Assembly (NCBI GenBank): GCA_026388015.1
Contig: JAPLKO010000053.1
Span: 7,352 to 71,351 of the forward strand
Reading direction: 5' to 3'
From: Candidatus Firestoneibacteriota bacterium
GTDB taxonomy: Bacteria; Oederibacteriota; D2-FULL-39-29
Length of the DNA stretch: 64,000 bases
Under the pieces are notes generated by a model that was not told where the DNA came from, searched no databases, and saw nothing but the letters and a program-made list of their open reading frames with translations. Shown piece after piece: positions 463-43,831 of the stretch (positions within the stretch are counted from its first letter, which is position 1; the number at the start of each line of letters is the position of its first letter). The position numbers and the translations under genes are program-made.

Positions 463-1533
463 GTGCGAAATATTTATAAGGGAGAAAGTATGCAAATAGG
501 AAGGCACGATGTGAAGATAGTAGGTATAGATAAGGCATTACTGGTGGAGACGCAGAAGCGGCTGGATAACCTTACAAAACCGCTTGGGAGTTTGGGGCGG
601 CTGGAAGAGCTTGCGAAAACAGTTGTAGCTATAACGGGAAAGAAGAATCCGGTGTTTAAGAACAAGGCAATCGTTACAATGGCTGCTGATCATGGGATTT
701 CACGGGAGGGGGTTTCGGCTTATCCTATGGAAGTGACTCCTCAGATGGTGCTTAACTTTATAGGGGGCGGCGCGGGGATAAACGTACTTGCGAGGCATGT
801 CGGAGCGAAAGTTATCATAGTGGATATGGGAGTTAACTATGATTTTAAAGGCGTAAAAGGGTTGATAGATAAAAAAATCGGTATGGGTACTAAAAGTTTT
901 ACAAAAGGGTTCGCTATGACAAGAGAGGAGGCTATTAAAAGCGTAGAAGCGGGAATAGATGTCGTTCTTGCCGAAAAAGAGCTGGATCTTGTGGGAACCG
1001 GGGATATGGGGATAGGAAACACCTCGCCGAGCGCGGCTATTACTTCTATATATACAGATAAACCTGTGGCGGACGTTACAGGGCGGGGAACAGGGATAGA
1101 TGATAAGAGCTTGAAAAACAAGATAGAACTTATAGAAAAAGGTGTTGCGTTAAATAAGCCTGACAAAAAAGATGCTTTGGACGTTCTTTCAAAAGTCGGC
1201 GGCTTTGAAATAGGCGGTTTGGCCGGTGTTATTCTCGGCGGAGCGATGCGGAAGGTGCCGGTAATTATAGACGGTTTTATCTCCACCGCGGCGGCGCTTA
1301 TTGCGGTAAATATAGAACCAAAAGCCGGAGAGTATCTTATCTCCTCGCATAACTCTGTAGAAAACGGGCATCGCTATGCTTTGGAATATTTAAAGCTTAA
1401 ACCGATATTAAATCTTGAGCTCCGGCTCGGGGAGGGTACGGGAGCGGCGCTTTCGATGAGCATTGTTGAAGCGGCGGTAAAGATACTGAACGAAATGGCA
1501 ACGTTTGAAGGGGCGGGAGTGAGTAGCAAGTAA
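463..1533 (+). CDS. cobT: Nicotinate-nucleotide--dimethylbenzimidazole phosphoribosyltransferase. The start is more likely the ATG at 490, which has a GGGAGA RBS.
   Basis: Has the GDMGIGNTS motif and the overall CobT architecture. Length is 356 aa. Confidence 0.9.
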   Translation: MRNIYKGESMQIGRHDVKIVGIDKALLVETQKRLDNLTKPLGSLGRLEELAKTVVAITGKKNPVFKNKAIVTMAADHGISREGVSAYPMEVTPQMVLNFIGGGAGINVLARHVGAKVIIVDMGVNYDFKGVKGLIDKKIGMGTKSFTKGFAMTREEAIKSVEAGIDVVLAEKELDLVGTGDMGIGNTSPSAAITSIYTDKPVADVTGRGTGIDDKSLKNKIELIEKGVALNKPDKKDALDVLSKVGGFEIGGLAGVILGGAMRKVPVIIDGFISTAAALIAVNIEPKAGEYLISSHNSVENGHRYALEYLKLKPILNLELRLGEGTGAALSMSIVEAAVKILNEMATFEGAGVSSK

Positions 1534-1568
1534 ACGTTATGAACAAAATTTGTATCGGAGAATAGACT

Positions 1569-2105
1569 ATGAAAGATTGTCGGAAAAATAAATTTATTTT
1601 TATTACCGGCGGAGCCAGGAGCGGGAAATCTTCGTTTGCGGAGAAGCTGGCTTTGAAGAAAGCAAAAGATAGAGTGTATATTGCCACTATGCAGGGATTG
1701 GATGAAGAGATGAAGGAAAGAATAGCTTTGCATAAAGAGCAGCGAGGCCCGAGTTGGAGCACAATAGAGGAGCCGCTTGAACTTTTATTTGCTTTGAAAA
1801 ATAATGACAAGAAAGGCCGAGTGCTTCTGATAGACTGTCTTACCCTCTGGGTTTCAAACAAAATGATGAAAGGACATAAGGAAAAAGAGATATTAAAAGC
1901 GGCGGAGAGTATTACAATGTACTCCGCGGCAGCAAAAGCTTCTGTTATTGTTGTTTCAAATGAAGTCGGGATGGGGCTCGTCCCTGATAATAAATTAGGA
2001 AGGGACTTTAGAGATATTCAGGGGAGAGTTAACCGGATTTTTGCGGAGCGGGCGGCAAAAATGTACTTTGTCGTTTCAGGTGTACCGCTGGAGGTAAAAA
2101 AGTGA
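1569..2105 (+). CDS. cobU: Bifunctional adenosylcobinamide kinase / adenosylcobinamide-phosphate guanylyltransferase
   Basis: P-loop FITGGARSGKSSFAE matches the CobU/CobP signature. Length is 178 aa. Confidence 0.9.
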   Translation: MKDCRKNKFIFITGGARSGKSSFAEKLALKKAKDRVYIATMQGLDEEMKERIALHKEQRGPSWSTIEEPLELLFALKNNDKKGRVLLIDCLTLWVSNKMMKGHKEKEILKAAESITMYSAAAKASVIVVSNEVGMGLVPDNKLGRDFRDIQGRVNRIFAERAAKMYFVVSGVPLEVKK

Positions 2106-2827
2106 GAAGCTTTTTTATAGCTTTGCAGTTTTTGACAAGTATTCCTTTTAAAATGAAAAATATTAAAGCAGCCGAGCTTCCCGGTTCCGTTACGTATTAC
2201 CCTGCAGTCGGAGCTATTGTCGGAGCAGTTCTTGCGTCTTCCTGCTTGTTTTTTAACGTTTTCTTTTCACAGTTTATTTCGCCCTTACTTACGCTCGGTG
2301 TATATATTTTAATTACCGGCGCTTTGCATATTGACGGGTTTGCCGATACCGTAGACGGTTTATACGGGGGAAGGACCAAAAAGGATATTCTTAGAATAAT
2401 GGCGGACAGCGCTACCGGCGCAAAAAGCGTGGTCTGGGTTGTATTTATTATAGCTCTAAAAGCCATTATATTGATTACGCTTCCGTCAAACAGGCTATAT
2501 CCAGCGCTTTTACTTTTTCCGGTCCTCGGGCGGTATTCAATAACGCTTCTAATGAAATACTCCTCCTATGCAAAAGAACAGGGACTCGGCAAAGTGTACT
2601 GCAAAAACGTTACAGGTGTACAGTTCCTAATCCTCAACGTCTTTACCGTTCTTTTTTTAATGCTTTTTGGTCCATTAGGTCTTGTTGCTTTTATTGCCGT
2701 AGTTTTTGTTGCATTTATTATAAAAACATATTTTGAAAATAAATTGGGAGGCGTCACGGGAGATGTCTTTGGTTTTTCGGTTGAAGTCACAGAAGCTGTT
2801 GCGTTATTAATTTTTACAATAAAATAA
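2102..2827 (+). CDS. cobS: Adenosylcobinamide-GDP ribazoletransferase (cobalamin 5'-phosphate synthase)
   Basis: Polytopic membrane protein with the HIDGFADTVDG motif. Its start overlaps the cobU stop. Confidence 0.9.
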   Translation: MRSFFIALQFLTSIPFKMKNIKAAELPGSVTYYPAVGAIVGAVLASSCLFFNVFFSQFISPLLTLGVYILITGALHIDGFADTVDGLYGGRTKKDILRIMADSATGAKSVVWVVFIIALKAIILITLPSNRLYPALLLFPVLGRYSITLLMKYSSYAKEQGLGKVYCKNVTGVQFLILNVFTVLFLMLFGPLGLVAFIAVVFVAFIIKTYFENKLGGVTGDVFGFSVEVTEAVALLIFTIK

Positions 2828-2890
2828 TATTTTTATGAGTGGAATCAGAAAATCTTGTAATCGATGGAATCTATTTAAGGAGGCTGTAAC

Positions 2891-4714
2891 ATGAAAAAGT
2901 TTTTACTCGTACTGTTGCTTGCGGTTTTAGTTTTTGGTGAGGAAGGAAAAATAAAATCCGAGAATAGTTATTTTCAACTGGATGATGTTGTGGTTACCGG
3001 CTCCAGAGTAGAAAAAGCTCTAAGGGAGGCTCCCGGATCTCTGGTCATTGTCGATGACGCCAGAGTAAAAAATGGCGGAGATAAAAATGTAGGTCTGGCA
3101 ATATCTGATATTCCCGGAGTAGACTCCGGAAAAGTCGGTACCATCGGGCAGACCCAAAGCGTTATGATCCGCGGAATAGGATCGGAAGGTACTTTGGTTC
3201 TGATAAACGGAGTGCGCTTAAACTCCTCCTATCAAGGTTTAGTCGATTTTTCTTCGCTTCCGATAGACAACATAGAAAGGATAGAAGTTTTAAAAGGTCC
3301 GGCCTCTTCGCTTTACGGCGCGGATGCGGCGGGCGGAGTGATAAATATTATTACAAAAAGCCGTGCAGAAAAAAAGGTGATGGAATTTTTAGCCTTGTAC
3401 GGTTCTTTTTGCACCTTAGACCTTAGGGCTTCTTACGCGGATAAAATAGGCGCTCTCTCTTTGAACGTTTCCGGTTCTTATCTCACCGCTTCCGGGCAAA
3501 GAGAGAATAGCGATGTTTTAAGCAAGAATCTAAACCTTTCCCTTGCTTATGACTTTACAAAGAAGCATACTTTAAAAACATTTTTAACTGCCTACAAAAG
3601 TGACAGCGGAGCCCCGGGTTCTCTTTCTTGGCTTACGCCGTTAGATCGGCAGCAGCTTGAAAGATCAAGCGTAGGTTTTGACTATAGCCTCCCTCTTACC
3701 GAGGATTCGGATCTTAAACTAAAGATAAACGGCAATAAAAACATCTTGAATTTCTATCAGCCTGGAGTCGCGACTTTGAGCGAGGAGAGAAATGTTTTTA
3801 TGGAAACCACCTATACTTATGATTTTGGCGGGATAAATATTATTACGGCAGGAGTGAGCGGTAACTACAGTGTAAATGAGCAGAATTTTATGGGTGATCA
3901 TAATGCGAATTCAAAAGCTATTTTTGCCCAGGACATTTTTGACCTTCTCGGCTCCTGGATATTTACGGCTTCCGCCCGTTATGACAGTCATTCGGTTTAC
4001 GGAGACTCTTTCAATCCTATGTTTGCACTTGTTTATAACATCGAAGACGGGGTGCAGATTAAAACATCTTACGGTTCTTCTTTCAGAGCTCCGACATTCT
4101 CCGAGCTTTATGCAACCCCGGCTATGGGCGGTCCGGGAAACCCGGCGCTTGAACCCCAAAAAACTTATTCTTTTGAAGCAGGCTTGAACCTAGAGTTTGG
4201 CCGAACGGCAGTACTAAGAACCACATATTTTAACAACCAGATTAAAAATCTTATAGAGTGGGCCCCTGTAGACCCTACCTACCTAACCTCTTTTGACTGG
4301 ACTCCTTCAAATGTGGGAGAGGCGGAGACCTATGGAGTAGAATCGGAGTTAAAAATAATATTCGCCGAAAACCTTAGTGTTTTTTTCGGACACACTTGGC
4401 TGGTTACTTTGAATAAGGTTACCGACCTGGAGCTTATGTACAGGCCAAAAAACAAAGCAAATCTTGGTATTTCTTATAACCTGTGCGGTCAGAAAATAAA
4501 ATTAGATGCGGAGTATTATGATTTACGGCGGGCGGGTTCGGGTTCCCGGCTTCCCGGCTTTATTACCCTGTGTGCAAAGGCAGAACTGACGATTATAAAA
4601 GAAATAGCGCTGGTTTTTTCGGCTAACAATATTTTGGATATTGCTTATGTTCTAAGAGAAGATTATCCTATGCCGGGGAGAACCTTGAATGCCGGGCTGA
4701 AATTTACTTTTTAA
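2891..4714 (+). CDS. btuB: TonB-dependent outer membrane receptor, BtuB-like cobalamin receptor
   Basis: Signal peptide, a TonB box/plug (DDVVVTGSRVEKALREAPGS) and a C-terminal aromatic residue (ends ...LKFTF). It is positioned in the cob salvage operon. Confidence 0.8.
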   Translation: MKKFLLVLLLAVLVFGEEGKIKSENSYFQLDDVVVTGSRVEKALREAPGSLVIVDDARVKNGGDKNVGLAISDIPGVDSGKVGTIGQTQSVMIRGIGSEGTLVLINGVRLNSSYQGLVDFSSLPIDNIERIEVLKGPASSLYGADAAGGVINIITKSRAEKKVMEFLALYGSFCTLDLRASYADKIGALSLNVSGSYLTASGQRENSDVLSKNLNLSLAYDFTKKHTLKTFLTAYKSDSGAPGSLSWLTPLDRQQLERSSVGFDYSLPLTEDSDLKLKINGNKNILNFYQPGVATLSEERNVFMETTYTYDFGGINIITAGVSGNYSVNEQNFMGDHNANSKAIFAQDIFDLLGSWIFTASARYDSHSVYGDSFNPMFALVYNIEDGVQIKTSYGSSFRAPTFSELYATPAMGGPGNPALEPQKTYSFEAGLNLEFGRTAVLRTTYFNNQIKNLIEWAPVDPTYLTSFDWTPSNVGEAETYGVESELKIIFAENLSVFFGHTWLVTLNKVTDLELMYRPKNKANLGISYNLCGQKIKLDAEYYDLRRAGSGSRLPGFITLCAKAELTIIKEIALVFSANNILDIAYVLREDYPMPGRTLNAGLKFTF

Positions 4715-4913: not shown

Positions 4914-4941
4914 TTGACATTCTTCTGCAAAGTGATATACT
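4914..4941 (+). promoter_or_regulatory. Sigma70-like promoter: TTGACA, 16-nt spacer, TATACT
   Basis: Read directly from the sequence, about 65 nt upstream of the decarboxylase ATG. Confidence 0.4.
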
Positions 4942-5004: not shown

Positions 5005-6540
5005 ATGGATTTTTATGAAAGACAGCTAAAGACCCCGTTGTTTGACGCTGTTGTTAACTACGCCAAGAAGAAAAAAATATCTTTTCACACGCCCGGGCAC
5101 AAACACGGGGACGGTATTCCTAAAAAATTCAGAGATTTTGTTGGCGCCAAGATATTTGATATTGACCTTACGCTCCTTGAAGAAGTAGATTCTCTGCAGG
5201 ATCCGAAAACCGTAATCAAAGAGGCGCAGAAGCTTGCGGCGGAAGCTTACGGCGCAGATTTTTCCTTTTTACTGGTAAACGGAACGACAATAGGCAATCA
5301 GGCTATGATTTTATCCTCCTGCATGCCGGGCGATAAGATAATAATTCCTAGAAATGCCCATAAATCCGTAATAGCGGGAGTTATCTTGAGCGGCGCCATC
5401 CCGGTCTATGTCTATCCACAATTCGACAAAGAACTCGGTATTATTACAAATATTACGGCAAATGACGTCGAGGCTAAACTGAAAGAACACCCGGATGCGA
5501 AAGCAATACTGGTAACCAATCCCACGTATAATGGAATTACAACGGACATAAGAGAGATTGTAAGAATAGCTCATAACCATAAAAAAATAATAATGGTAGA
5601 TGAAGCACACGGCCCGCATTTAAAGTTTCATCCGGACCTGCCCACATCTGCAATGGAAGCAGGCGCCGATATGTGCGTCCAAAGCAGTCATAAAATCATT
5701 TCGGGAATGACGCAGGCTTCGATGCTTTTTGCAAGAAAAAGTGTTGACTTGCTGAAATTAAAAAGAATTCTTCAGCTTCTGCACACGACCTCGCCTTCAT
5801 ATATACTGATGGCTTCACTGGATGTTGCCAGGATGCAAATGGCGACTCAGGGAAGAGAGATTCTTTCAAAAGTAATTGCTTTGGCGGAAGAAGCAAGAAA
5901 AGGAATAAAAGCTCAGGGCATCGGCTGTTTTGGTCGTGAAGTAATCGGGCGTGAAGGTGTTTTTGGTCTTGATGTTACAAAACTCAATATCGACGCAACC
6001 GGGATCGGTAATACCGGCTATGAGGTGCAAAAGCTGCTTAATAAGAAATTCAATATTCAGGTGGAGTTTGCCACCCCGACAAGTTTGTTGGCAATAATTA
6101 CACTGGGAAACACAAAAAATGATATATATAAGCTTAACTATGCGCTTAAGGATATTAAAAAGAATTATGTTAAAAATGAAAAAGTTGTAAATGCCATAAA
6201 AAGTGTTCAGTTTCCAAATATTGTTTCCGATGTGGTTTTGACGCCTCGCGAAGCCTCTTTTTCCATTACCAAAAAAGTTCATTTTAAAGATTCAATCGGC
6301 ATGATAAGCGCCGAAGTGGTTTGCCCGTATCCTCCGGGTATTCCTCTCTTAGCGCCCGGCGAAAGGATTACCAAAGAAGTCTATGATTATGTTATGTTTT
6401 TAAAGGAAATGGGGACTATTATGAACGGTCAGGATGATAAAAATCTCAATTTTATCAAGGTTGTTCAAGAAGCTAAACAACAACACGAATTAACTAATAA
6501 TATACTTGAAGTTAGCAAGATAATAGGGTACAAAGGATAG
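5005..6540 (+). CDS. Orn/Lys/Arg decarboxylase family protein (PLP-dependent). Likely an arginine or lysine decarboxylase.
   Basis: PLP-lysine context SSHKIISGMTQASMLF. Length is 511 aa, typical of the family (B. subtilis SpeA-like). Confidence 0.8.
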   Translation: MDFYERQLKTPLFDAVVNYAKKKKISFHTPGHKHGDGIPKKFRDFVGAKIFDIDLTLLEEVDSLQDPKTVIKEAQKLAAEAYGADFSFLLVNGTTIGNQAMILSSCMPGDKIIIPRNAHKSVIAGVILSGAIPVYVYPQFDKELGIITNITANDVEAKLKEHPDAKAILVTNPTYNGITTDIREIVRIAHNHKKIIMVDEAHGPHLKFHPDLPTSAMEAGADMCVQSSHKIISGMTQASMLFARKSVDLLKLKRILQLLHTTSPSYILMASLDVARMQMATQGREILSKVIALAEEARKGIKAQGIGCFGREVIGREGVFGLDVTKLNIDATGIGNTGYEVQKLLNKKFNIQVEFATPTSLLAIITLGNTKNDIYKLNYALKDIKKNYVKNEKVVNAIKSVQFPNIVSDVVLTPREASFSITKKVHFKDSIGMISAEVVCPYPPGIPLLAPGERITKEVYDYVMFLKEMGTIMNGQDDKNLNFIKVVQEAKQQHELTNNILEVSKIIGYKG

Positions 6541-6620
6541 TCATTTTGTAAAATCACGGATGTTAGATTTAATTTGGCTGACCCCGAACGAAACATTTAA
6601 TAGAAAGGAGGAATACGAAA

Positions 6621-6758
6621 TTGCTTTTTTGCTGCGACGAATGCTCACACTACGAAATTTGCAGCGAGTCGGGAACCCTGCTTGACGGCTGCTGTAAAAA
6701 ATGCGTTTACTATAATGATTGCCATATCGAGGAGATATCAGATGAAGAAGAAGAGTAA
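6621..6758 (+). CDS. Unannotated 45-aa cysteine-rich small ORF with a TTG start: MLFCCDECSHYEICSESGTLLDGCCKKCVYYNDCHIEEISDEEEE. Its stop overlaps the dksA start.
   Basis: A perfect SD (AAAGGAGG at 6604-6611) lies 9 nt upstream of the TTG at 6621. The motif CCx2Cx5C is duplicated and the tail is acidic. The ORF ends at TAA 6756-6758, 17 nt into the dksA coding frame. Confidence 0.35.
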   Translation: MLFCCDECSHYEICSESGTLLDGCCKKCVYYNDCHIEEISDEEEE

Positions 6759-7155
6759 AACAATCACTAAACTTAAGAAAAAAAAGGTCGTCAAGGCCAA
6801 GCCAATAAAACTCGCTTCGGCAGAGATTAAAAAATTTAAGGCGCTATTGCTTGCTCAAAAGATAGAGCTTATAGAAGAGTTAAACAAAAATCTAAATGAC
6901 AGCAAAAAAATAGATTTTAATGAAGTTAAAGACTCTGTAGATCTTGCAAGTGACACCTATGATACGGAATTTCTTCATAACTTAAGCGCTACCGAAAAAA
7001 AACAGGTTGAAGATATTGATGAGGCGCTTAATAGAATAGCCTCCGGAACTTTCGGAGTTTGCGAAAATTGCAGTAAAAAGATTAATAATAATCGACTGGT
7101 TGCGTTGCCGCAGGCAAAACTATGCATTGCTTGCCAGCAAAATGTGGGCGGTTAA
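6742..7155 (+). CDS. dksA: DksA/TraR family C4-type zinc-finger transcription factor. The ORF track starts at 6682; the start at 6742 is preferred.
   Basis: C-terminal CENCSKKI...CIACQQ zinc finger. A GAGGAG RBS sits 8 nt upstream of the ATG at 6742. Confidence 0.8.
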   Translation: MKKKSKTITKLKKKKVVKAKPIKLASAEIKKFKALLLAQKIELIEELNKNLNDSKKIDFNEVKDSVDLASDTYDTEFLHNLSATEKKQVEDIDEALNRIASGTFGVCENCSKKINNNRLVALPQAKLCIACQQNVGG

Positions 7156-7177: not shown

Positions 7178-9739
7178 ATGGCAGGTAAAAAAAAGAAATT
7201 GTTTTTGATAGACGGTAACTCCTACCTCTATCGAAGCTACTATGCCATAAAAAATTTAAAGACTTCAAAAGGCGCGCCGACCAATGCAGTATTCGGGTTT
7301 GCGCGTCTTTTATTTAGAATACTTAAGGTGTACAAACCGGAGTATCTCGCCTTTACCTTTGACACTAAAGGACCTACTTTCCGCCACAAGGCCTATAAAG
7401 ATTATAAAATTCACAGAGAGCCTCCGCCCGAAGATCTGATAGCCCAGATGCCTGTAACAAAAGATCTTATAAAAGCTTTTAATATGCCCTCTTTTGAACT
7501 TCAGGGATATGAAGCCGACGATATAATAACCTATCTGGCAAGAAAAGGGGAGCAGGCGGGGTTAGAGGTGCTGATTTTAACCGGGGATAAAGATTTACTT
7601 CAGCTGGTTAATGAAAACATTAAAATTATGAGCGCAAACAAAGAGGATTATATTTATGATGCTGCAAAAGTAAAAGAAAAATACGGAATAGAACCGTTAC
7701 AGATGATAGATTTTCTGGCTCTGCTCGGGGATGCGAGTGATAACATACCCGGAGTGGACGGTATAGGGGAAAAGACGGCGTCCGAGCTTCTTAAAGAGTT
7801 TAAAGGTCTGAATGATATATATTCCAACATAGAAAAAGTAAAAAGCGACAAATTAAAGGAAAAATTGCTTAAAGGTAAGGAGTCGGCCTACTTTAGCAGA
7901 CAGCTGGCTACTCTCATTGAACCTCCTCTGGAGATAACCATAGAAGAGCTCGTTTCTAAAATTCCGGATGCCGCAGCTGTACTTGCAAAGCTGGGCGAAC
8001 TGGAGTTTGGCTCTATGCGGGAGGAGTTTAAGAAACTCGGTTTTTCACCGGTAGAAAGCGGGGAAGTAAACCTTTTTTCCGAAGAGAAGAAAGCTGAGTC
8101 AAATATTTTAGAAGTAACAGGTAAAGAGCAGACCGCTGAGGTGTACAAAGAGATTAAAAAATCCGGTAAAGCGGCCGTAAGTTTGCAGGACGGAAAGATT
8201 CTTTTTTCTTATGCCGCGGGTAAGGGGCACAGATTAGAGGTAAACAGAGGTTTAACGGATACTCTCCTTGCAGATAAGGAGCTCTCTCTTTCTTTCTTTG
8301 ATTACAAAGAGTTTCTTAAAGTTTATGACGGTGCAGTTACCAAGGGTGAGGTTTTTGACTGCCGGCTTGCGGCTTACCTGTTAAATCCGGACCGGGGCAG
8401 CTATATGCAGGGGGAGATAATATTCAGTTATCTGGCAAAAAATCCGGCGGAAAAAGAAGAAGTCTGTTTTCTGCTCGAACTTAAAGATGCGCTAAAAAAA
8501 GAGTTAAAGGAGCAGAAGCTTCTGGAGTTATTTGAAAAAATAGAGATGCCGTTAGTGCCGGTGCTTGCTTCTATGGAAAAGCACGGGATCAAACTGGACC
8601 TTCAACATCTAAAGAAACTCTCCGTAGAGCTCGGGAAAACACTGGAGGGGCTGATTAAAAACATCTACGGTCTGGCCGGGGAGGAGTTTAATATTAACTC
8701 TTCGCAGCAGCTCGGAAAAATATTATTTGAAAAACTTAAACTGCCGGTGGTAAAAAAGACGAAGACCGGTAACTCCACCGATGTAGAAGTTTTAGAAGAG
8801 CTTGCCGCAAAATCTCCTCTTCCCGCCTTTTTGCTGGAGTACAGACAGTTAACGAAACTTAAAAATACTTATATTGATTCTCTGCCGTTACTTGCCGACA
8901 AAGAGGATAAAGTTCATACGACGTTTGAGCAGACCGGCGCGGCAACCGGGAGACTCTCCAGTCTTAATCCTAATATTCAAAATATTCCCGTAAGAACGGA
9001 AGTCGGTAAAGAGATAAGAAGGGCTTTTACGGCTTCCGAAAAAGGCTGGAAGCTCATATCTGCGGACTACTCCCAGATAGAGCTGCGTATTCTCGCGCAT
9101 TTTTCAGGAGATAAAAATCTGATTGATGCTTTTGAAAAAGACGAAGATGTGCACAGCCGGACGGCGGCAGAGATATTTAAAATAAAAAAAGACGCCGTAA
9201 CCGGTGACGAAAGGCGCATTGCCAAAACAGTTAATTTTGGTATAATCTATGGCATCTCTGCATTCGGCCTGGCAAAACAACTGAAGATAAGCCGTACGGA
9301 AGCGCAAAAATATATAGACAGTTATCTCGAAAACTACCCGGGTGTTGATAGGTTTATGCAGGAGGCCAAAGAAAAGGCGAAGAAACAGGGCTTTATCGAG
9401 ACCCTCCTCGGAAGAAAGAGGTATATTCCGGATATTGAAAGTAAAAATAAGAATACCCGGGAGTTCGCCGAAAGAGTTGCTGTTAATGCGCCGATTCAGG
9501 GTTCGGCATCGGATATTATTAAAGTTGCAATGGTTAAACTTTACGGTATAATGCAAAAAGAGGTTAAGAAAGGGCGTCTTCTTCTGCAGGTGCATGATGA
9601 GCTTATTCTGGAGTGCCCGGAAAAAGATGTTGAGAGCCTTAAAAAGCTTGTAAAAGAAACGATGGAAGAAGTAATAAAACTGAAAGTACCGCTTAAAGTG
9701 GATGTTAACTCGGGGGATAACTGGCTTGAGTGCAAATAA
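7178..9739 (+). CDS. polA: DNA polymerase I
   Basis: 5'-3' exonuclease N-terminus. Polymerase motif B is RRIAKTVNFGIIYG and motif C is QVHDELILE. Length is 853 aa. Confidence 0.95.
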   Translation: MAGKKKKLFLIDGNSYLYRSYYAIKNLKTSKGAPTNAVFGFARLLFRILKVYKPEYLAFTFDTKGPTFRHKAYKDYKIHREPPPEDLIAQMPVTKDLIKAFNMPSFELQGYEADDIITYLARKGEQAGLEVLILTGDKDLLQLVNENIKIMSANKEDYIYDAAKVKEKYGIEPLQMIDFLALLGDASDNIPGVDGIGEKTASELLKEFKGLNDIYSNIEKVKSDKLKEKLLKGKESAYFSRQLATLIEPPLEITIEELVSKIPDAAAVLAKLGELEFGSMREEFKKLGFSPVESGEVNLFSEEKKAESNILEVTGKEQTAEVYKEIKKSGKAAVSLQDGKILFSYAAGKGHRLEVNRGLTDTLLADKELSLSFFDYKEFLKVYDGAVTKGEVFDCRLAAYLLNPDRGSYMQGEIIFSYLAKNPAEKEEVCFLLELKDALKKELKEQKLLELFEKIEMPLVPVLASMEKHGIKLDLQHLKKLSVELGKTLEGLIKNIYGLAGEEFNINSSQQLGKILFEKLKLPVVKKTKTGNSTDVEVLEELAAKSPLPAFLLEYRQLTKLKNTYIDSLPLLADKEDKVHTTFEQTGAATGRLSSLNPNIQNIPVRTEVGKEIRRAFTASEKGWKLISADYSQIELRILAHFSGDKNLIDAFEKDEDVHSRTAAEIFKIKKDAVTGDERRIAKTVNFGIIYGISAFGLAKQLKISRTEAQKYIDSYLENYPGVDRFMQEAKEKAKKQGFIETLLGRKRYIPDIESKNKNTREFAERVAVNAPIQGSASDIIKVAMVKLYGIMQKEVKKGRLLLQVHDELILECPEKDVESLKKLVKETMEEVIKLKVPLKVDVNSGDNWLECK

Positions 9740-18151: not shown

Positions 18152-19894
18152 ATGGAAAAGAAAATAATATATATAAGAGATACGGACTCCGCCCAGAAGG
18201 AACGCATTAATGACTACTTTACACTCTTCTCAAATGAACTGAGAGACGCAAATCTTCTGGAGCAGGTCCAGCTTGTGAAAGTAGCAGATATCGGCTTGTA
18301 TGAAAAAGGCGTTGCGGTTAAGATTATACCGGAAAACATTGTTTATAGCGGAATAAAAACCACTGATGTTAAAGAAATAGTGGAAGAAACAATTAGGGGT
18401 GGCAAAATAATCAAGGATTTGCTTTGCGGAAAAAAATCAAAACAACTGAGAGCGGTTCTTAAAAACTGCGGGTATATAGACCCGGAAAGCCTGGAAGATT
18501 ATATTGCTGCAGGCGGCTACAAGGCTCTGGTTAAAGTTCTTACGGAGATGAAGCCGGAAGCAGTGGTGGAAGAGCTTAAAAAAAGCGGACTTCGCGGCAG
18601 AGGCGGCGCCGGCTACCCCACCTGGATGAAATGGAATTTTGCCCGGGGAATGAATTCTCCGGAAAAATATGTTATCTGCAACGGCGACGAAGGAGATCCC
18701 GGCGCGTATATGGACAGGAGCGTACTTGAAGGAGATCCTCATTCCGTTTTGGAAGGTATGATAATAGCCGGCTACACCATCGGTTCTACAAAAGGGTACT
18801 TCTATATTAGAGCAGAGTATCCTCTTGCCGTGGAAAGGGTTCAGAAAGCGATAGATCAGGCGACTTCTGCAGGACTTCTGGGCAATAATATTCTGGGGAG
18901 TAACTTTAATTTTGAGCTCGAGATAAGACTGGGAGCGGGCGCCTTTGTCTGCGGTGAAGAAACATCTCTGATTGCTTCAATAGAAGGTAAGCGGGGGACT
19001 CCGCATCCCAGGCCGCCCTATCCTTCGGTTAAGGGTCTTTGGGGAAAACCAACAATCATTAATAATGTAGAGACCCTGGCTAATATACCATTGTTAATTG
19101 CCGGCGGCGGAACAAAATTTGCCTCAGTCGGAACAGAAAAAAGTAAGGGCACAAAAGTATTTGCGCTTACGGGAAAAGTAAAAAACTCGGGTTTGGTTGA
19201 AGTTCCCATGGGTATAACTCTACGTGAGATTGTTTATGACATCGGGGGCGGAATAATTAATAATCGCGACATTAAGGCGATTCAGACCGGCGGTCCCTCC
19301 GGCGGGGTCATTCCTCAGGAGTTTCTGGATACTCCAGTAGACTACGAAAACCTCGGCAAACTCGGCTCCATCATGGGCTCCGGCGGCATGATAGCAATAG
19401 ATGATACCGATTGCTTGGTAGATCTGGCAAAGTTCTATCTTGAATTTTGCGTTGACGAATCCTGCGGTAAGTGCGCGCCCTGCCGTCTCGGAGGCTACCA
19501 GCTTCTTCAAATACTTAAAAAAATATCCGGCGGTAACGGAGAACTTGAAGACTTAAACAGGCTAAAGAAAATTTCCTACGCTATGCAAAAAGCTTCGCTT
19601 TGCGGTTTGGGTCAATCAGCTTCCAATCCGGTATTCTCAACAATAAGATACTTTGAGGAAGAATACAAAAGGCACATTGTTGATAAAAAATGCCCGGCCG
19701 GAAAGTGTAAAGCGCTTATTAGTTTTAAGGTAATTTCTGAAAAGTGCAAGAAGTGCGGGCTTTGTATGAAAAACTGTCCGGCAAATGCTATTACGGGAAG
19801 CCGCGAAGCCGGCTATATTGTTGATTCGCAAAAATGTATCAAATGCGGTGTTTGTTTTGATGTCTGCAAGTTTAAAGCCGTGATGAAGGAGTAG
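18152..19894 (+). CDS. hndC: NuoF-like NAD(P)H-binding FMN/[4Fe-4S] subunit with a C-terminal 2x[4Fe-4S] ferredoxin domain (HndC/HydB-like)
   Basis: [12 protein letters not shown] (FMN/NADH site), a CGKCAPC cluster motif, and C-terminal [12 protein letters not shown]...[11 protein letters not shown]. Confidence 0.9.
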
Positions 19895-19899
19895 GATAA

Positions 19900-21651
19900 A
19901 TGTATAAAATGATAGAAGCTAAAATTAACGGTATCACCGTGGAAGTCAAAGAAGGGACGACAGTCATGGAGGCGGCCAAAAAAGTCCAGATTAAAATACC
20001 GACACTTTGCAAGCACCCGGACCTTCCGCCTTCCGCCGCCTGCGGTCTTTGTATCGTAAAGGTGAAAGGTTCCAATAAAATGCTTCGCGCCTGTTGTACT
20101 CCGCTTGAAGACAAGATGGAGATAACCACAAATGATCCGGATATTGTAGAGGTAAGAAAAACTGTTTTAGAGCTGATAATCTCGAATCATCCTAATGACT
20201 GTTTGAAATGCGGTCGTAACGGTAATTGCGAGCTTCAGAGTATGGCGGCAGATTTTGGTATTCGCGAAGATGTTTTTGGAAAGTTCCTCCGGGATATTCC
20301 TATAGATTCATCAACCGGTACTGTTGTTCTCGAGCCTTCAAAATGCATTCTTTGCGGACGCTGTATAGAAGTCTGTCAGAATATGCAGGATGTTTGGGCT
20401 CTCTCTTTTCTTGAGAGAGGACTTGATACCAGAATTTCCCCGGCCGGAGATATTAAACTTTCTGAATCTCCCTGTGTTAAGTGCGGCCAATGCTCAGCAC
20501 ATTGTCCTACCGGCGCAATATTTGAAAAAGATGATACACAGCTGGTCTGGGATGCGCTTAAGAATCAGGATAAATATTGTGTAATTCAGATAGCTCCCGC
20601 AGTCAGGGTGGCCATAGGCGAGGCGTTTGGTGCTACAGGCAAGAACCTTACAAAAAAGCTTTATGCTCTATTCAGAAGAATGGGATTTAAGGCGGTTTTT
20701 GATACCAACTTCGGTGCTGATGTTACAATTATGGAAGAAGCAAGCGAATTTGTAGAACGCTTTGTTCATAAAAAAAGCGAACTGCCTTTGATTACTTCCT
20801 GCTGTCCGGCGTGGGTTGACTTTATGGAAAAGTTTCATTCCGACATGATAAATCATTTCTCCACCTGCAAATCCCCGCACGAAATTGTTGGTACACTTTC
20901 TAAAACTTATTATGCGGAGAAGGCGGGGGTTGATCCGTCTAAGATTTATATGGCGTCTGTAATGCCCTGCACGGCAAAAAAATATGAGATTACCAGATCC
21001 GATGAGATGTTTGCTTCAGGTTATCAGGATATAGATGTTGCCATTACAACGCGCGAACTTGCGCGCATGATAAAACAGGCGGGAATAGATTTTATGAATC
21101 TGCCTGACGAAGAAGCGGACAGTTTGCTCGGTGATTATACCGGTGCAGGTGTTATCTTCGGCGCGACCGGCGGCGTTATGGAAGCAGCTCTTAGGACGGC
21201 GTACAATCTTGTTACAAAAAAAGAACTGGAAGATGTCAATTTTGTAAACACAAGAGGACTGGAGTTCATAAAGGAAGCAGAAATAGACATAGAAGGGACA
21301 AAAGTCAAGATTGCCGTTGCGCACGGACTTTCACATGTCGAAGAAGTTTTGGAAAGAGTGAGACAGGCAAAGAAGGAAGGAAAAGAAGTTCCTTATCACT
21401 TTATTGAGGTAATGGCTTGCCCCGGCGGTTGTGTCGGCGGCGGCGGTCAGCCCTATAATGTAACGGACAGTCTAAGATTAAAAAGAGCTTCTGCAATCTA
21501 CCAGGATGATAAAGAAAAAACAGTGCGCTGTTCGCATAATAATGTATATGTAAAAAAACTGTATAAAGATTTCCTGGGAAAACCACTCGGGGAGAAATCT
21601 CATAAGCTTTGTCACACCGAGTATAAGGCAAGACCGATTTACGTAAGATAA
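19900..21651 (+). CDS. hndD: [FeFe]-hydrogenase catalytic subunit, group A bifurcating/NAD(P)-linked type (HndD/HydA-like)
   Basis: H-cluster motifs TSCCPAWV, MPCTAKKYE and EVMACPGGCVGGGGQP. N-terminal [2Fe-2S] and [4Fe-4S] ferredoxin domains. Confidence 0.92.
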   Translation: MYKMIEAKINGITVEVKEGTTVMEAAKKVQIKIPTLCKHPDLPPSAACGLCIVKVKGSNKMLRACCTPLEDKMEITTNDPDIVEVRKTVLELIISNHPNDCLKCGRNGNCELQSMAADFGIREDVFGKFLRDIPIDSSTGTVVLEPSKCILCGRCIEVCQNMQDVWALSFLERGLDTRISPAGDIKLSESPCVKCGQCSAHCPTGAIFEKDDTQLVWDALKNQDKYCVIQIAPAVRVAIGEAFGATGKNLTKKLYALFRRMGFKAVFDTNFGADVTIMEEASEFVERFVHKKSELPLITSCCPAWVDFMEKFHSDMINHFSTCKSPHEIVGTLSKTYYAEKAGVDPSKIYMASVMPCTAKKYEITRSDEMFASGYQDIDVAITTRELARMIKQAGIDFMNLPDEEADSLLGDYTGAGVIFGATGGVMEAALRTAYNLVTKKELEDVNFVNTRGLEFIKEAEIDIEGTKVKIAVAHGLSHVEEVLERVRQAKKEGKEVPYHFIEVMACPGGCVGGGGQPYNVTDSLRLKRASAIYQDDKEKTVRCSHNNVYVKKLYKDFLGKPLGEKSHKLCHTEYKARPIYVR

Positions 21652-22642: not shown

Positions 22643-25600
22643 ATGAACAGTCCGCTTGAAAAAGTAAAGGTACTGAAACAAAAAGCAATAAAGAGCAACA
22701 TTCCTAAATGGAACGCCGATATTCGGTTTAGTATTGGTATGTCCACCTGCGAAATAGCCGCAGGTTCAAAAAAAGTTTTAGCCGCCCTGCAGGAAGAGAT
22801 AAAGAAGAGAAAGCTTAAGGGTGTGTGTATAACGGAAAAAGGCTGCGCAGGCAGGTGTCATGTTGAACCTACGCTAGAAGTATTTGTTCCGGGAAGAAAA
22901 CCCGCAGAGTTTGAGAATGTCGATGAAAAGAAAGTAAAAAGGATTCTAGCGGAGTATGCTTACAAAAAAGTAAAGAGAAACAATAAAGTACTTCCTGCGC
23001 CTGCGGATTTTGGACATGAGTTTCTGACCGATCGTTCCGCCTATATTTTTGGAGATCTGGTAGAGTTCTCAAAACAAAAAAGAATGGCGCTAAGAAATTG
23101 CGGAGCGATAGATCCGGAATCAATCGATGATTATCTTTGTGTAAGAGGTTATGAAGCACTTGGAAAGGTGCTGACGGCTTACAAACCGGAGATGGTTGTA
23201 GAAGATATTATAAAATCAGGGCTCCGGGGTCGAGGGGGTGGGGGCTTTAAGACCGGCACAAAATGGGGCTTTGTTGCCGCACAGAATAATACTGTAAAAT
23301 ATGTTATCTGTAACGCCGACGAGGGTGATCCGGGCGCATTTATGGACCGGAGTATGATAGAGGGAGATCCGTTTAGCTTGTTAGAGGCTATGGCCATAGG
23401 CGGGTATGCGGTCGGGTCCAATGCGGGAATAGTTTATATACGCGCGGAATATCCTTTGGCAGTAAAGAGATTAAAAATTGCTATTGAAATCGCTAAGAAA
23501 AAGAACCTTCTCGGGAAAAATATTCTTGGAAGTGATTTTACCTTTGACGTAGATATCGTGCTTGGGGCAGGCGCTTTTGTTTGCGGTGAGGAAACAGCTC
23601 TTATCAATTCTATAGAAGGAAAGCGCGGAATGCCTATAACGAGACCGCCCTATCCTTCTGTAAAAGGTCTCTGGGGCCGTCCGACGCTTATTAACAATGT
23701 AGAAACCTGGGCAAATATTCCGTTAATCATACTTGACGGATGGGAATTTTTCTCTTCTGTCGGCACGGATAAATCGAGAGGAACCAAAGTATTTGCGCTT
23801 GCCGGAAAGATTAAGAACACCGGACTCGTGGAAGTTCCTATGGGTACGACTCTCGGAGAGGTTATCTTTGATATCGGCGGGGGCACTAAAACTGACGCAA
23901 AATTCAAAGCTGCGCAGACCGGCGGGCCTTCGGGAGGTTGTCTTCCCACCCAGTTTCTTAACACTCCTATAGATTATGATTCTCTTATCTCAGCAGGCTC
24001 TATTATGGGTTCCGGCGGACTTATTATTATGGATGAAAAAGATTGCATGGTGGATGTTGCAAAGTTCTTCCTGGAGTTTACCCAAGATGAGTCCTGCGGT
24101 AAGTGTACACCCTGCAGAGAAGGAACCAAAAGAATGCTCGAGATACTCGAAAGGATCACCGGCGGAAAAGGCGAAGAAGGCGATATAGAAAAACTTGAAA
24201 GACTCGGGAACAGCATAAAAAAAACTGCTTTATGCGGACTGGGGCAGACAGCGCCGAATCCGGTGCTTTCCACGATTAAATATTTTAGAAATGAGTATGA
24301 ATCCCACATAAGGGACAGAAAATGTAAATCCGCAGTTTGCGGCGAACTCTTTGTGTCGCCCTGTCAGCATACCTGTCCGGTAAACATAGATATTCCCGGC
24401 TTCATAGGAAATATCAGAGAAGACAGATTGAAGGACAGTATTGAATTGATCCTAAAAAGAAATCCTTTGCCTTCTGTTTGCGGCCGGGTTTGTCATCATC
24501 CGTGCGAAACAAACTGCAGAAGAGGGAAGATGGAAGAGCCTATCTCCATTATGATGTTGAAAAGATTTGCAGCGGATTACACTGCCGGAGATAAAGGTAT
24601 TGCGATAGAAAAATATAAGGGTAAAACCTTGAAGGCTTCCGTTGCAATAATCGGAAGCGGTCCGGCGGGTCTTTCTGCGGCGTATCACCTGGCAAAAAGA
24701 GGTTATCAGGTTACAGTTTATGAATCTGAAAAAGTAGCCGGCGGCATGCTTACTTTGGGTATTCCGGAGTACAGGTTGCCCAAAGATATAGTAGACCGGG
24801 ATATTAAACGTCTCATAAGCGCTGGTGTAAAAATAAAAACCGGCGTGCATTTTGGAAAGGATATATCTCTGAAAGATCTAAAGGATAAAGGCTTCCAGGC
24901 CGTCTTCCTTGCCATCGGTGCCTGGAAAGAAGTACCGCTTAAAATTCACGGTACGGATCTCTTTGGATTTATGGGTTCTCTTTCTTTCCTTAAAAACTAC
25001 AACACCGAAAAGATTGTGAAGATTAAAGGTGTCTACTCCATAGTAATAGACGAAGAACATAATATGCCGGTAACGGGCCAAAGGGTCGCAGTCATCGGAG
25101 GCGGAAATGCCGCTATGGATGTGGCGAGAACTTGTCTCCGTCTCGGTGCTTCCGAAGTTCATGTTGTATATAGAAGAGACCGCGCGGATATGCCAGCAAT
25201 TCCCGAGGAAGTTCACGAGTGTGAAAAAGAGGGCGCAAAACTGCATTTCCTTCTGATACCTAATAATATTAAAGGCAAATTCGGTAAGATTCAGGAGCTT
25301 GAATGCCTTCATACAAAACCGGGAGAGTTCGATGCTACCGGAAGAAGAAAACCGGTTCCTACGGAAGAGAAATTTGTTCTGCCCGTGGATATTATCATAA
25401 GCGCCATCGGCGGCAAACCCAACTGCGCCGAGCTTTCCAAGGATAAACTTATTATGACGGATTGGGATACGGTCTCTGTTGATAAAAGGACTCTGGCTAC
25501 GAATATCCCGTGGGTTTTTGCCGGAGGGGACGTTGTTACCGGAGGCGGTACGGTTATAGAGTCTGTGGCAGACGGTGAAAAGGCGGCAATTTCCATCGAT

Positions 25601-25849
25601 AGGTACCTTCAGGGAAAAAGAGGCGATGAACTTTTCAGAGACCGTTTTGTGGTTAAAGGGGAAAGAAAAGTCGTTTCGTATATTGATCCTGCAAAAGAAG
25701 TAAAAGAAAAAGCGAGAATAAAGCATGCTAAGCTCACTATGGAAAAACGTTTGCAGGCTTTCACAGAAGTAGAACTCGGCTATACAAAGAGCCAGGCTAT
25801 GGAAGAGTGTGACCGCTGCTTACGCTGCGATAAAAAGGAGGTTGAATAA
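22643..25849 (+). CDS. 1068-aa three-module fusion: HndB-like [2Fe-2S] domain, then NuoF-like FMN/NAD(H) module, then GltD/NfnB-like FAD/NAD(P)H module
   Basis: N-terminus GMSTCEIAAGSKKV. Middle GLRGRGGGGFKTG plus CGKCTPC. C-terminus has a GltD Fe-S region (CQHTCPVNIDIP...CHHPCETNC) and two dinucleotide folds (AIIGSGPAGLSAAY and VAVIGGGNAAMDVA). Confidence 0.85.
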   Translation: MNSPLEKVKVLKQKAIKSNIPKWNADIRFSIGMSTCEIAAGSKKVLAALQEEIKKRKLKGVCITEKGCAGRCHVEPTLEVFVPGRKPAEFENVDEKKVKRILAEYAYKKVKRNNKVLPAPADFGHEFLTDRSAYIFGDLVEFSKQKRMALRNCGAIDPESIDDYLCVRGYEALGKVLTAYKPEMVVEDIIKSGLRGRGGGGFKTGTKWGFVAAQNNTVKYVICNADEGDPGAFMDRSMIEGDPFSLLEAMAIGGYAVGSNAGIVYIRAEYPLAVKRLKIAIEIAKKKNLLGKNILGSDFTFDVDIVLGAGAFVCGEETALINSIEGKRGMPITRPPYPSVKGLWGRPTLINNVETWANIPLIILDGWEFFSSVGTDKSRGTKVFALAGKIKNTGLVEVPMGTTLGEVIFDIGGGTKTDAKFKAAQTGGPSGGCLPTQFLNTPIDYDSLISAGSIMGSGGLIIMDEKDCMVDVAKFFLEFTQDESCGKCTPCREGTKRMLEILERITGGKGEEGDIEKLERLGNSIKKTALCGLGQTAPNPVLSTIKYFRNEYESHIRDRKCKSAVCGELFVSPCQHTCPVNIDIPGFIGNIREDRLKDSIELILKRNPLPSVCGRVCHHPCETNCRRGKMEEPISIMMLKRFAADYTAGDKGIAIEKYKGKTLKASVAIIGSGPAGLSAAYHLAKRGYQVTVYESEKVAGGMLTLGIPEYRLPKDIVDRDIKRLISAGVKIKTGVHFGKDISLKDLKDKGFQAVFLAIGAWKEVPLKIHGTDLFGFMGSLSFLKNYNTEKIVKIKGVYSIVIDEEHNMPVTGQRVAVIGGGNAAMDVARTCLRLGASEVHVVYRRDRADMPAIPEEVHECEKEGAKLHFLLIPNNIKGKFGKIQELECLHTKPGEFDATGRRKPVPTEEKFVLPVDIIISAIGGKPNCAELSKDKLIMTDWDTVSVDKRTLATNIPWVFAGGDVVTGGGTVIESVADGEKAAISIDRYLQGKRGDELFRDRFVVKGERKVVSYIDPAKEVKEKARIKHAKLTMEKRLQAFTEVELGYTKSQAMEECDRCLRCDKKEVE

Positions 25850-25850
25850 C

Positions 25851-43723: not shown

Positions 43724-43831
43724 GCAGTTAATAAAAAATAGTATATAATATATCTGTTATCATAGAAAAAGCCTTGTTGTAATTTAAGCAATTGTGAAAT
43801 ATTTCTAAATAGATTATTAGGGAGGTGTTTA

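Follow-up and report, generated by a model that had tools for sequence, protein, structure and literature searches.

A small gene overlapping dksA in Candidatus Firestonebacteria and its cysteine-rich, predicted metal-binding product

Does the DNA in front of dksA in Candidatus Firestonebacteria harbor a gene of its own, and what might its cysteine-rich product do there? The question is raised by a 64,000-nucleotide (nt) stretch of contig JAPLKO010000053.1 (assembly GCA_026388015.1, positions 7,352 to 71,351, forward strand), referred to as the window throughout, in which a 45-codon open reading frame (ORF) ends within the first codons of the gene for the RNA-polymerase regulator DksA. An earlier inspection of the letters alone, here the sequence-only reading, had described this small ORF as opening with TTG 9 nt behind a perfect Shine-Dalgarno (SD) sequence and as carrying eight cysteines in two CCx2Cx5C copies, and the coordinates and the translation agree with that description. 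As detailed below, the small ORF is a genuine gene under protein-level purifying selection, and its product is predicted to bind metal and may act together with DksA. The features on which the analysis rests are the following.

6541-6620, forward strand: spacer between an upstream decarboxylase gene and the small ORF, variable and poorly conserved
6604-6611, forward strand: SD sequence AAAGGAGG of the small ORF, with a 9-nt spacer to TTG 6621
6621-6758, forward strand: small ORF for the 45-residue Cys8 micro-protein, TTG start at 6621-6623, TAA stop at 6756-6758
6630-6662, forward strand: repeat 1, C4-C5-x2-C8-x5-C14; the four Cys, E7 and Y11 are invariant
6690-6722, forward strand: repeat 2, C24-C25-x2-C28-x5-C34; the four Cys are invariant and Y30 nearly so
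6729-6734, forward strand: GAGGAG, codons E37-E38 of the small ORF and SD sequence of dksA, 7 nt before the ATG
6742-6758, forward strand: 17-nt overlap, in which the dksA ATG and Lys codons lie in frame +1 relative to D41-E45 and the stop codon
6742-7155, forward strand: dksA, 137 amino acids (aa), encoding an RNA-polymerase regulator of the DksA/TraR C4 zinc-finger type whose N-terminal tail is polybasic (PF01258)

A conserved reading frame in front of dksA

The 45 codons translate into MLFCCDECSHYEICSESGTLLDGCCKKCVYYNDCHIEEISDEEEE, of which MLFCCDECSHYEICSESGTLLDGCCK and CVYYNDCHIEEISDEEEE are peptides. The eight cysteines occupy positions 4, 5, 8, 14, 24, 25, 28 and 34 and form two CCx2Cx5C copies offset by exactly 20 residues, and both halves additionally have Glu in common at +3 and +8 as well as an aromatic residue at +7. 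Such a double motif is not a chance event, since it is expected only ~4.5e-7 times per 64-kb window at the six-frame Cys frequency and was not found in any of 200 shuffles. The two histidines reported together with the cysteines are present as well (positions 10 and 35), but only His35 is conserved while His10 is variable; His35 itself is conserved only within the Firestonebacteria clade and is replaced by Lys or Arg in a divergent clade. The net charge is about -11.4 for the whole micro-protein and about -4.4 for its Cys core.

For comparison, 23 loci with DksA orthologs were taken from genome and metagenome collections, and four loci of the divergent clade (L031-L034), located via the micro-protein peptide itself, were added. 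Seven near-identical contigs of the same species are uninformative for selection; one of them differs by a synonymous change and the substitution T19I. In 35/35 loci the small-ORF frame is open just upstream of dksA and all eight cysteines are kept, with the consensus M-L-[YF]-C-C-[DE]-E-C-x-x-Y-[ED]-x-C-[ST]-E-x-G-x-L-x-[ED]-[GE]-C-C-x-x-C-x-[YF]-[YF]-x-[DE]-C-[HKR] ahead of an acidic tail. A start codon (TTG, GTG or ATG) and a strong SD sequence are found at the same position in all loci: in Firestonebacteria TTG or GTG stands 6-9 nt after AGGAGG, GGGAGG or AAGGAG, whereas in the divergent clade the start is ATG, 3-12 nt after the decarboxylase stop codon. Identity to the window copy is 41-80% across relatives and parallels that of DksA (57-75%), PolA (49-86%) and the decarboxylase, for which proteins it drops to 49-56%.

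Codon-level tests were carried out on 18 distinct nucleotide sequences (18-20 distinct sequences overall). The variable columns at codon positions 1, 2 and 3 number 15, 19 and 37 of 39. The mean ratio of nonsynonymous to synonymous differences per site (pN/pS) is 0.20 in the small-ORF frame, with pS saturated at ~0.79, and no stop codon occurs in that frame, while the other two frames of the same DNA yield 1.61 and 0.95 and contain stops in 4/18 and 18/18 sequences, respectively. Each Cys position switches between TGC and TGT among loci, and several different codons stand for the invariant Glu, Tyr and Gly residues; the conserved non-Cys residues are E7, Y11, E16, G18 and Y30. The upstream spacer behaves differently: its length ranges from 3 to 267 nt among loci (19-267 nt in Firestonebacteria), and in distant relatives its nucleotide identity amounts to 0.15-0.25 versus 0.68-0.79 for the small-ORF core. 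As the pattern of selection is that of a protein, the small ORF is a real gene. The sequence-only reading had staked this very point on the frame being conserved upstream of dksA, and it is kept and selected in all relatives.

The 80-nt spacer of the window (6541-6620) is 58-72% identical in the closest relatives (L008, L009, L018, L019) and unalignable in distant ones. An internal promoter or a regulatory site specific to the clade might reside there, with TTGTAA at ~6546 and TTAATT at ~6569 noted by eye.

The start of dksA bears directly on the question whether the small ORF is a gene at all, as the mechanical ORF list runs the dksA frame back to TTG 6682, and a start at this codon had been named as the alternative that would turn the small ORF into an out-of-frame artefact. 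In the alignment of 27 DksA orthologs (54-75% identity, from Candidatus Firestonebacteria or metagenomic) all sequences begin at the same Met-Lys-Lys, which corresponds to ATG 6742-6744 in the window. This conserved start excludes 6682, so that dksA comprises 6742-7155 and the overlap 17 nt. The product matches PF01258 with 42.3 bits (cut-off 24.9), the four cysteines of its C4 zinc finger (CxxC-x17-CxxC) are conserved in 26/27 orthologs, the tip motif DxxDxA (D64-S-V-D67-L-A69) is invariant or nearly so, and from residue 24 onward it aligns to the solved DksA structures 1tjl, 2kq9, 4ijj and 6ptg. It stays under the cut-offs of the NCBIfam DksA equivalog models (88.6 vs 105), which marks the protein as divergent; judged by its sequence it is a bona fide but divergent DksA. 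Its N-terminal ~23-25 residues form a polybasic tail with a charge of about +11.5 that is absent in E. coli DksA and the solved DksA proteins. In this lineage the tail is of low complexity, rich in Lys and variable in length, with roughly 25-50 residues (window 6742-6815 and orthologs).

The idea that the small ORF is no gene, being a chance open frame or the shadow of a DksA extended from 6682, could draw on the openness of the dksA frame back to that TTG and on one public annotation (P0014, 190 aa) that extends DksA upstream likewise. It is refuted by the ortholog starts (27/27 align from the same MKK), by the frame-wise pN/pS (1.6 with stops in 4/18 sequences for the dksA frame upstream of its ATG, against 0.20 and none for the small-ORF frame) and by the alternation of the Cys codons; furthermore, the chance expectation of the motif is only ~5e-7. 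We attach practically no probability to it. The annotation itself (L011/L022, 3796-3936) extends DksA by ~40 residues through the small ORF in the wrong frame, reading …AAVRNVYTIKIAMSRR…, and an extension of this kind conceals the gene of the micro-protein. In 14/18 sequences no stop interrupts the dksA frame over the Cys core, which invites such mis-annotation.

Overlap with dksA was likewise part of the sequence-only reading and recurs in every locus: the dksA ATG lies inside the small ORF in 35/35 cases, with an overlap of 17 or 20 nt in Firestonebacteria and of 26 or 29 nt in the divergent clade. Within GAGGAG the SD core AGGAG spans 6730-6734, and GAGGAG or an equivalent GGGGAGG is kept in relatives. 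The GAA/GAG run that encodes E42-E45, read one base later, becomes AAG-AAG-AAG and thus Lys2-4 of DksA. Because the codons of the acidic tail also encode the dksA SD sequence, its ATG and its Lys-rich N-terminus, the tail results at least in part from the overlap or is held under joint constraint with it; the acidic tail that had been noted is indeed there, but largely as a by-product of the embedded dksA signals or under a constraint shared with them. The two genes form an overlapping pair in the usual sense, i.e. they are co-directional, the downstream start lies inside the upstream gene and the arrangement is kept across relatives, and the conserved overlap suggests that their translation is coupled. 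Reasoning from the sequence, we considered and rejected a fusion of the micro-protein with DksA by programmed +1 frameshifting: the GAG/GAA-TAA stop lacks a slippery site, and the conserved SD sequence and ATG point to independent initiation of dksA.

With a gene placed across the start of another, the peptide itself might be functionless, the small ORF acting in cis as an upstream ORF or leader peptide that gates dksA translation and perhaps senses Cys-tRNA via its eight Cys codons. Its position over the SD sequence and start of dksA and the non-ATG start codon in all Firestonebacteria would fit, and DksA belongs to the amino-acid starvation response. The strong purifying selection on the non-Cys residues E7, Y11, E16, G18 and Y30 disfavors this explanation. 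The duplicated spacing is moreover conserved precisely, unlike a mere run of Cys codons, dksA possesses its own SD sequence, and the RNA offers nothing in favor: the mRNA around the dksA start (6590-6800) shows no unusual structure (fold z = 0.65) and has no Rfam match. The low pN/pS and the invariant non-Cys residues together with these RNA results led us to reject a leader peptide or attenuator, for which we see only a slim chance.

Distribution and annotation of the family

An exact-sequence look-up of the peptide returned no record for this genome, and a word-indexed homolog search found one near-identical JGI protein only. Two further searches, an exhaustive one with HMMER (1.84 billion representatives) and one with a profile (5.8 billion proteins), both recovered solely stand-alone proteins of 45-49 aa, in 7 clusters. 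Nowhere among these 1.84-5.8 billion proteins does the module form part of a longer polypeptide, and no paralog or unlinked copy was detected there or in the window. Three long HMMER matches (P0030, P0032, P0033) are tandem-repeat artefacts without the motif and were rejected. Some relatives are deposited as 'hypothetical protein' (e.g. MEI7905572.1), having been called at JGI, NCBI and ENA; thus the gene is unannotated, as had been supposed, with respect to the records for this genome but not with respect to its relatives. It is a clean case of a gene that is missed by annotation pipelines or masked by extension of the downstream gene.

No match was obtained with the peptide in Pfam and NCBIfam, with 22 family members in Pfam (up to E <= 10), in a PDB profile search or by tblastn against plasmid and phage records. 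As far as seen, the micro-protein constitutes a previously undescribed family, present in Candidatus Firestonebacteria and one related clade. Cysteine-rich metal-binding micro-proteins and coupled overlapping genes are known as such; new are the twofold CCx2Cx5C motif and the combination of the two.

A short, Cys-rich product could also be the precursor of a peptide made on ribosomes and modified post-translationally (RiPP), of the SCIFF or ranthipeptide-like type, and SCIFF peptides have about the same length as the micro-protein. Nevertheless, NCBIfam, which includes a SCIFF model, gave no match, a leader/core organisation is missing, and the conserved neighbourhood contains housekeeping genes (decarboxylase, dksA, polA, coaE) and no radical S-adenosylmethionine enzyme or other maturase. 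This origin is highly improbable, and the non-coding and RiPP readings are effectively excluded.

Predicted metal binding by the eight cysteines

The micro-protein has no signal peptide, and its eight invariant cysteines span 31 residues. Such a density of invariant thiols in a cytoplasmic protein lacking a signal peptide argues for metal binding, and most likely the cysteines would provide two tetrathiolate sites or one compact polynuclear thiolate cluster. Zinc, or another metal bound in mononuclear tetrathiolate fashion, is put at roughly even chances. The argument for it is the presence of two CxxC knuckles 20 residues apart plus four further invariant cysteines, in a layout (CX2CX5C-x10-CX2CX5C) that resembles two-zinc modules such as Gal4 Zn2Cys6. 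About 35 residues suffice for two zinc ions, as in RING, LIM and Gal4 domains. An iron-sulfur (Fe-S) cluster is the main alternative, at lower odds, and metals of any other kind are more doubtful still.

Among zinc proteins, the Gal4, cross-braced RING/LIM-type and DnaJ Cys-rich domains illustrate how six to eight cysteines in a short span can organise two zinc ions. Gal4 Zn2Cys6 (CX2CX6C-x6-CX2CX5-6C) shares with the micro-protein a duplicated Cys pattern within ~30-45 residues. In contrast to it, the micro-protein carries an extra Cys before each repeat (CC) and spacings that are off by one residue; furthermore, it is acidic (net -11), bacterial and stand-alone, whereas the Gal4-type domain is basic and fungal. 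Since it is acidic and not basic, the micro-protein is not a DNA-binding module. A true Gal4-type Zn2Cys6 domain was rejected, as the spacing CX2CX6CX5-12CX2CX6-8C is not found and none of the 22 members matches PF00172 at E <= 10. The likeness to a zinc ribbon or rubredoxin that had been drawn initially could not be demonstrated: two CxxC pairs (C5-C8 and C25-C28) are present, but Pfam, NCBIfam, PDB and fold searches returned no family or fold match, and the AlphaFold2 model is of low confidence (pLDDT, predicted local distance difference test, 61.8). A parallel in size and genetic setting is offered by the prokaryotic small zinc-finger micro-proteins, for instance the haloarchaeal CPxCG proteins such as Brz (PMC2253796, PMC10117724). 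These stand alone, measure <= 70 aa and contain paired cysteines, and their genes often lie beside a regulator or regulated gene on which they act. They differ from the present family in their C(P)xCG pairs (CCx2Cx5C here), their archaeal origin and the lack of homology, and no member is known whose gene overlaps dksA.

The spacing CX2CX5C is, on the other hand, a recurrent Fe-S ligand arrangement known from NUBP1/Nbp35, RseC and SPASM domains, and its only other occurrences in the window are in two [FeFe]-hydrogenases, within their PF10588 [4Fe-4S] region. The motifs of NUBP1/Nbp35 (CX13CX2CX5C), RseC (CX5CX2CX5C), SPASM (CX2CX5CX3C) and NuoG/[FeFe]-hydrogenase (HX3CX2CX5C, PF10588) share this spacing, which the micro-protein has twice, and bind [4Fe-4S] or other oxygen-sensitive Fe-S clusters. 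Their fourth ligand lies 4-13 residues away or on another subunit, while in the micro-protein a Cys is directly adjacent; they reside in large proteins and lack sequence homology to the micro-protein. Clostridial 2x[4Fe-4S] ferredoxins are, like the micro-protein, small, very acidic and internally duplicated with eight cysteines, but they contain CxxCxxCxxxCP twice over ~55 aa, compared to a micro-protein core of only ~31 residues. About 31-35 residues leave very little room for two cubane clusters. A ferredoxin of this type was rejected as CxxCxxCxxxCP is absent and there is no Fer4 Pfam match, and a bacterial metallothionein (SmtA/BmtA) was rejected because none of the 22 members gave a Pfam match at E <= 10.

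These similarities feed an explanation in which the micro-protein is a metal or electron protein in its own right, i.e. a mini-ferredoxin, a rubredoxin-like carrier or a metallothionein-like buffer, and its adjacency to dksA reflects mere operon economy. The micro-protein is small, very acidic and rich in cysteine as ferredoxins and rubredoxins are, it has the Fe-S ligand spacing, CC pairs are typical of metallothioneins, and the host, equipped with two [FeFe]-hydrogenases and numerous Fe-S proteins, appears to be anaerobic. Against it stands the link to dksA, which is unbroken in 35/35 loci including the divergent clade with its 40% peptide identity and changed neighbours, as well as the failure to find a single unlinked or paralogous copy in the window or in the 1.8-5.8 billion proteins; likewise, 31 residues would offer very little shielding for two cubane clusters, and the ferredoxin signature is missing. 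An independent carrier or buffer is therefore judged unlikely, with about one chance in five.

Possible partnership with DksA and the neighbouring genes

We favor, at slightly better than even odds, the reading that the micro-protein represents a new Cys8 metal-binding family that is made together with DksA and probably acts with it, the metal as well as the partnership being deduced from sequence. According to this model the small ORF would be co-transcribed with the upstream arginine/ornithine-type decarboxylase gene and dksA. Ribosomes finishing the micro-protein would cross the dksA AUG and terminate 14 nt past it, and the overlap would thereby tie DksA synthesis, in place and amount, to that of the micro-protein. 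The latter could then partner DksA in the role of a chaperone or of an accessory subunit sensitive to metal or redox state; it might dock on the polybasic N-terminal tail or the Cys4 zinc-finger domain of DksA, and would in this way tune the amount of active DksA that reaches RNA polymerase.

DksA is proposed as the partner because of the universal overlap, the enrichment of complex-forming proteins among overlapping pairs and the opposite charges of the two proteins. In E. coli, overlapping co-directional gene pairs encode subunits of heteromeric complexes in 30.4% versus 6.8% of cases (PMC10666635). The charge of about -11.4 of the micro-protein is complemented by about +11.5 in DksA residues 1-25. 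A precedent is furnished by DnaJ, a Cys-rich zinc-binding protein which interacts with DksA and acts on its Cys4 finger, whose cysteines are redox-active and are serviced by it (PMC6294903). The case shows that a partner working through thiols or zinc is able to gate what DksA does. The difference is that DnaJ is a large general chaperone encoded elsewhere, while the micro-protein would be a dedicated 45-aa protein whose gene overlaps dksA and whose interaction with DksA is predicted.

Several points weigh against this reading. We infer the translation of the micro-protein in vivo from its sequence. The charge complementarity is partly forced, as the bases that spell GAA in one frame spell AAG in the other. 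Since dksA has its own SD sequence, the coupling may be partial; termination-reinitiation has been demonstrated for overlaps of 1-8 nt, and those of 17-29 nt found here are longer. No homology to metal-binding families was found in Pfam, NCBIfam or the PDB. The AlphaFold2 model, built on the 22-sequence family alignment, lacks clear hairpins in addition to its low confidence, and a Foldseek search with it against the PDB gave only a meaningless match at E = 7; low confidence is, however, what a metal-dependent fold would lead one to expect. Finally, the partner could be the decarboxylase, whose adjacency is equally constant and amounts to 3-12 nt in the divergent clade.

This last possibility requires a look at the surrounding genes, for which three further features are relevant.

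4914-4941, forward strand: promoter-like site matching the consensus (TTGACA-16-TATACT, 11/12 matches, extended TG), candidate promoter of the operon
5005-6540, forward strand: Orn/Lys/Arg decarboxylase gene (PF01276 at 6.4e-91)
7178-9739, forward strand: polA, the neighbour downstream of dksA, whose conservation is confined to the Firestonebacteria clade

The stretch from the decarboxylase gene to the small ORF contains no terminator-like site. The gene order in Firestonebacteria is TonB-dependent receptor, decarboxylase (PF01276), small ORF, dksA, polA and coaE, and in the divergent-clade locus L034 it is gmk, rpoZ, speD, speE, decarboxylase, small ORF, dksA and flp/tadE. Decarboxylase, small ORF and dksA stay together as a trio in every locus, even where tad pilus genes replace polA, and within this trio the small ORF always overlaps dksA whereas its distance to the decarboxylase gene varies. 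In L031 (120-3051) and L034 (1819-5105) speD for S-adenosylmethionine decarboxylase and speE for spermidine synthase precede the decarboxylase gene, L034 featuring gmk and rpoZ in addition. With speD/speE and gmk/rpoZ upstream, the micro-protein gene and dksA of the divergent clade end a polyamine-biosynthesis operon near an RNA-polymerase subunit gene.

Accordingly, the micro-protein could serve not DksA but the pyridoxal phosphate-dependent decarboxylase or polyamine pathway, for instance as an accessory subunit or a regulator of the antizyme type. The decarboxylase gene is upstream in every locus, and in the divergent clade the small ORF follows its stop codon after 3-12 nt within the speD-speE-decarboxylase operon. 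In Firestonebacteria, by contrast, the two are separated by an unconserved spacer of 19-267 nt and the small ORF has its own SD sequence, while the overlap with dksA is universal; moreover, we know of no Cys-rich accessory subunit for this decarboxylase family. A role in polyamine metabolism is hence regarded as rather improbable, more so than an independent metal protein.

A bolder form of the partnership with DksA would see in the micro-protein a dedicated metal- or redox-sensing subunit, possibly with oxygen-labile Fe-S clusters, that would bind the polybasic tail or the zinc-finger domain of DksA and, depending on metal or redox state, switch access of DksA to the secondary channel of RNA polymerase; we consider it a speculative variant with a minor share of the probability. 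The only established protein partner of DksA is RNA polymerase, besides DnaJ under oxidative stress (PMC6294903). If true, the micro-protein would be the first dedicated protein partner of a secondary-channel regulator and would represent a new minimal two-site metal fold. A Cys8 micro-protein overlapping dksA across an uncultured candidate phylum would point to an unrecognised metal or redox control of the stringent-response machinery, and a family with ~35 core residues and eight invariant cysteines, in an arrangement unlike that of any known zinc-finger or Fe-S family, offers a compact target for metalloprotein biochemistry and design.

Some other regions of the window were noted in passing. 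Upstream of the decarboxylase gene, positions 463-4714 (forward strand) contain cobalamin-related genes (CobT-like PF02277, CobU, CobS) and a TonB-dependent receptor gene; no cobalamin riboswitch was found at the Rfam gathering score anywhere in the window. In each of two clusters, at 18152-21651 and 22643-27638 (forward strand), a NuoF-like flavoprotein (Complex1_51K) is encoded together with the large subunit of an [FeFe]-hydrogenase. The two [FeFe]-hydrogenases identify the host as a likely anaerobe, and the clusters look to be of the electron-bifurcating type, in which case the organism would live by anaerobic fermentation. A tRNA-Sec gene (Rfam RF01852, 75 bits) is located at 43821-43911 (forward strand), at the start of the region listed as ORF 43832-45316, from which it follows that the organism uses selenoproteins.

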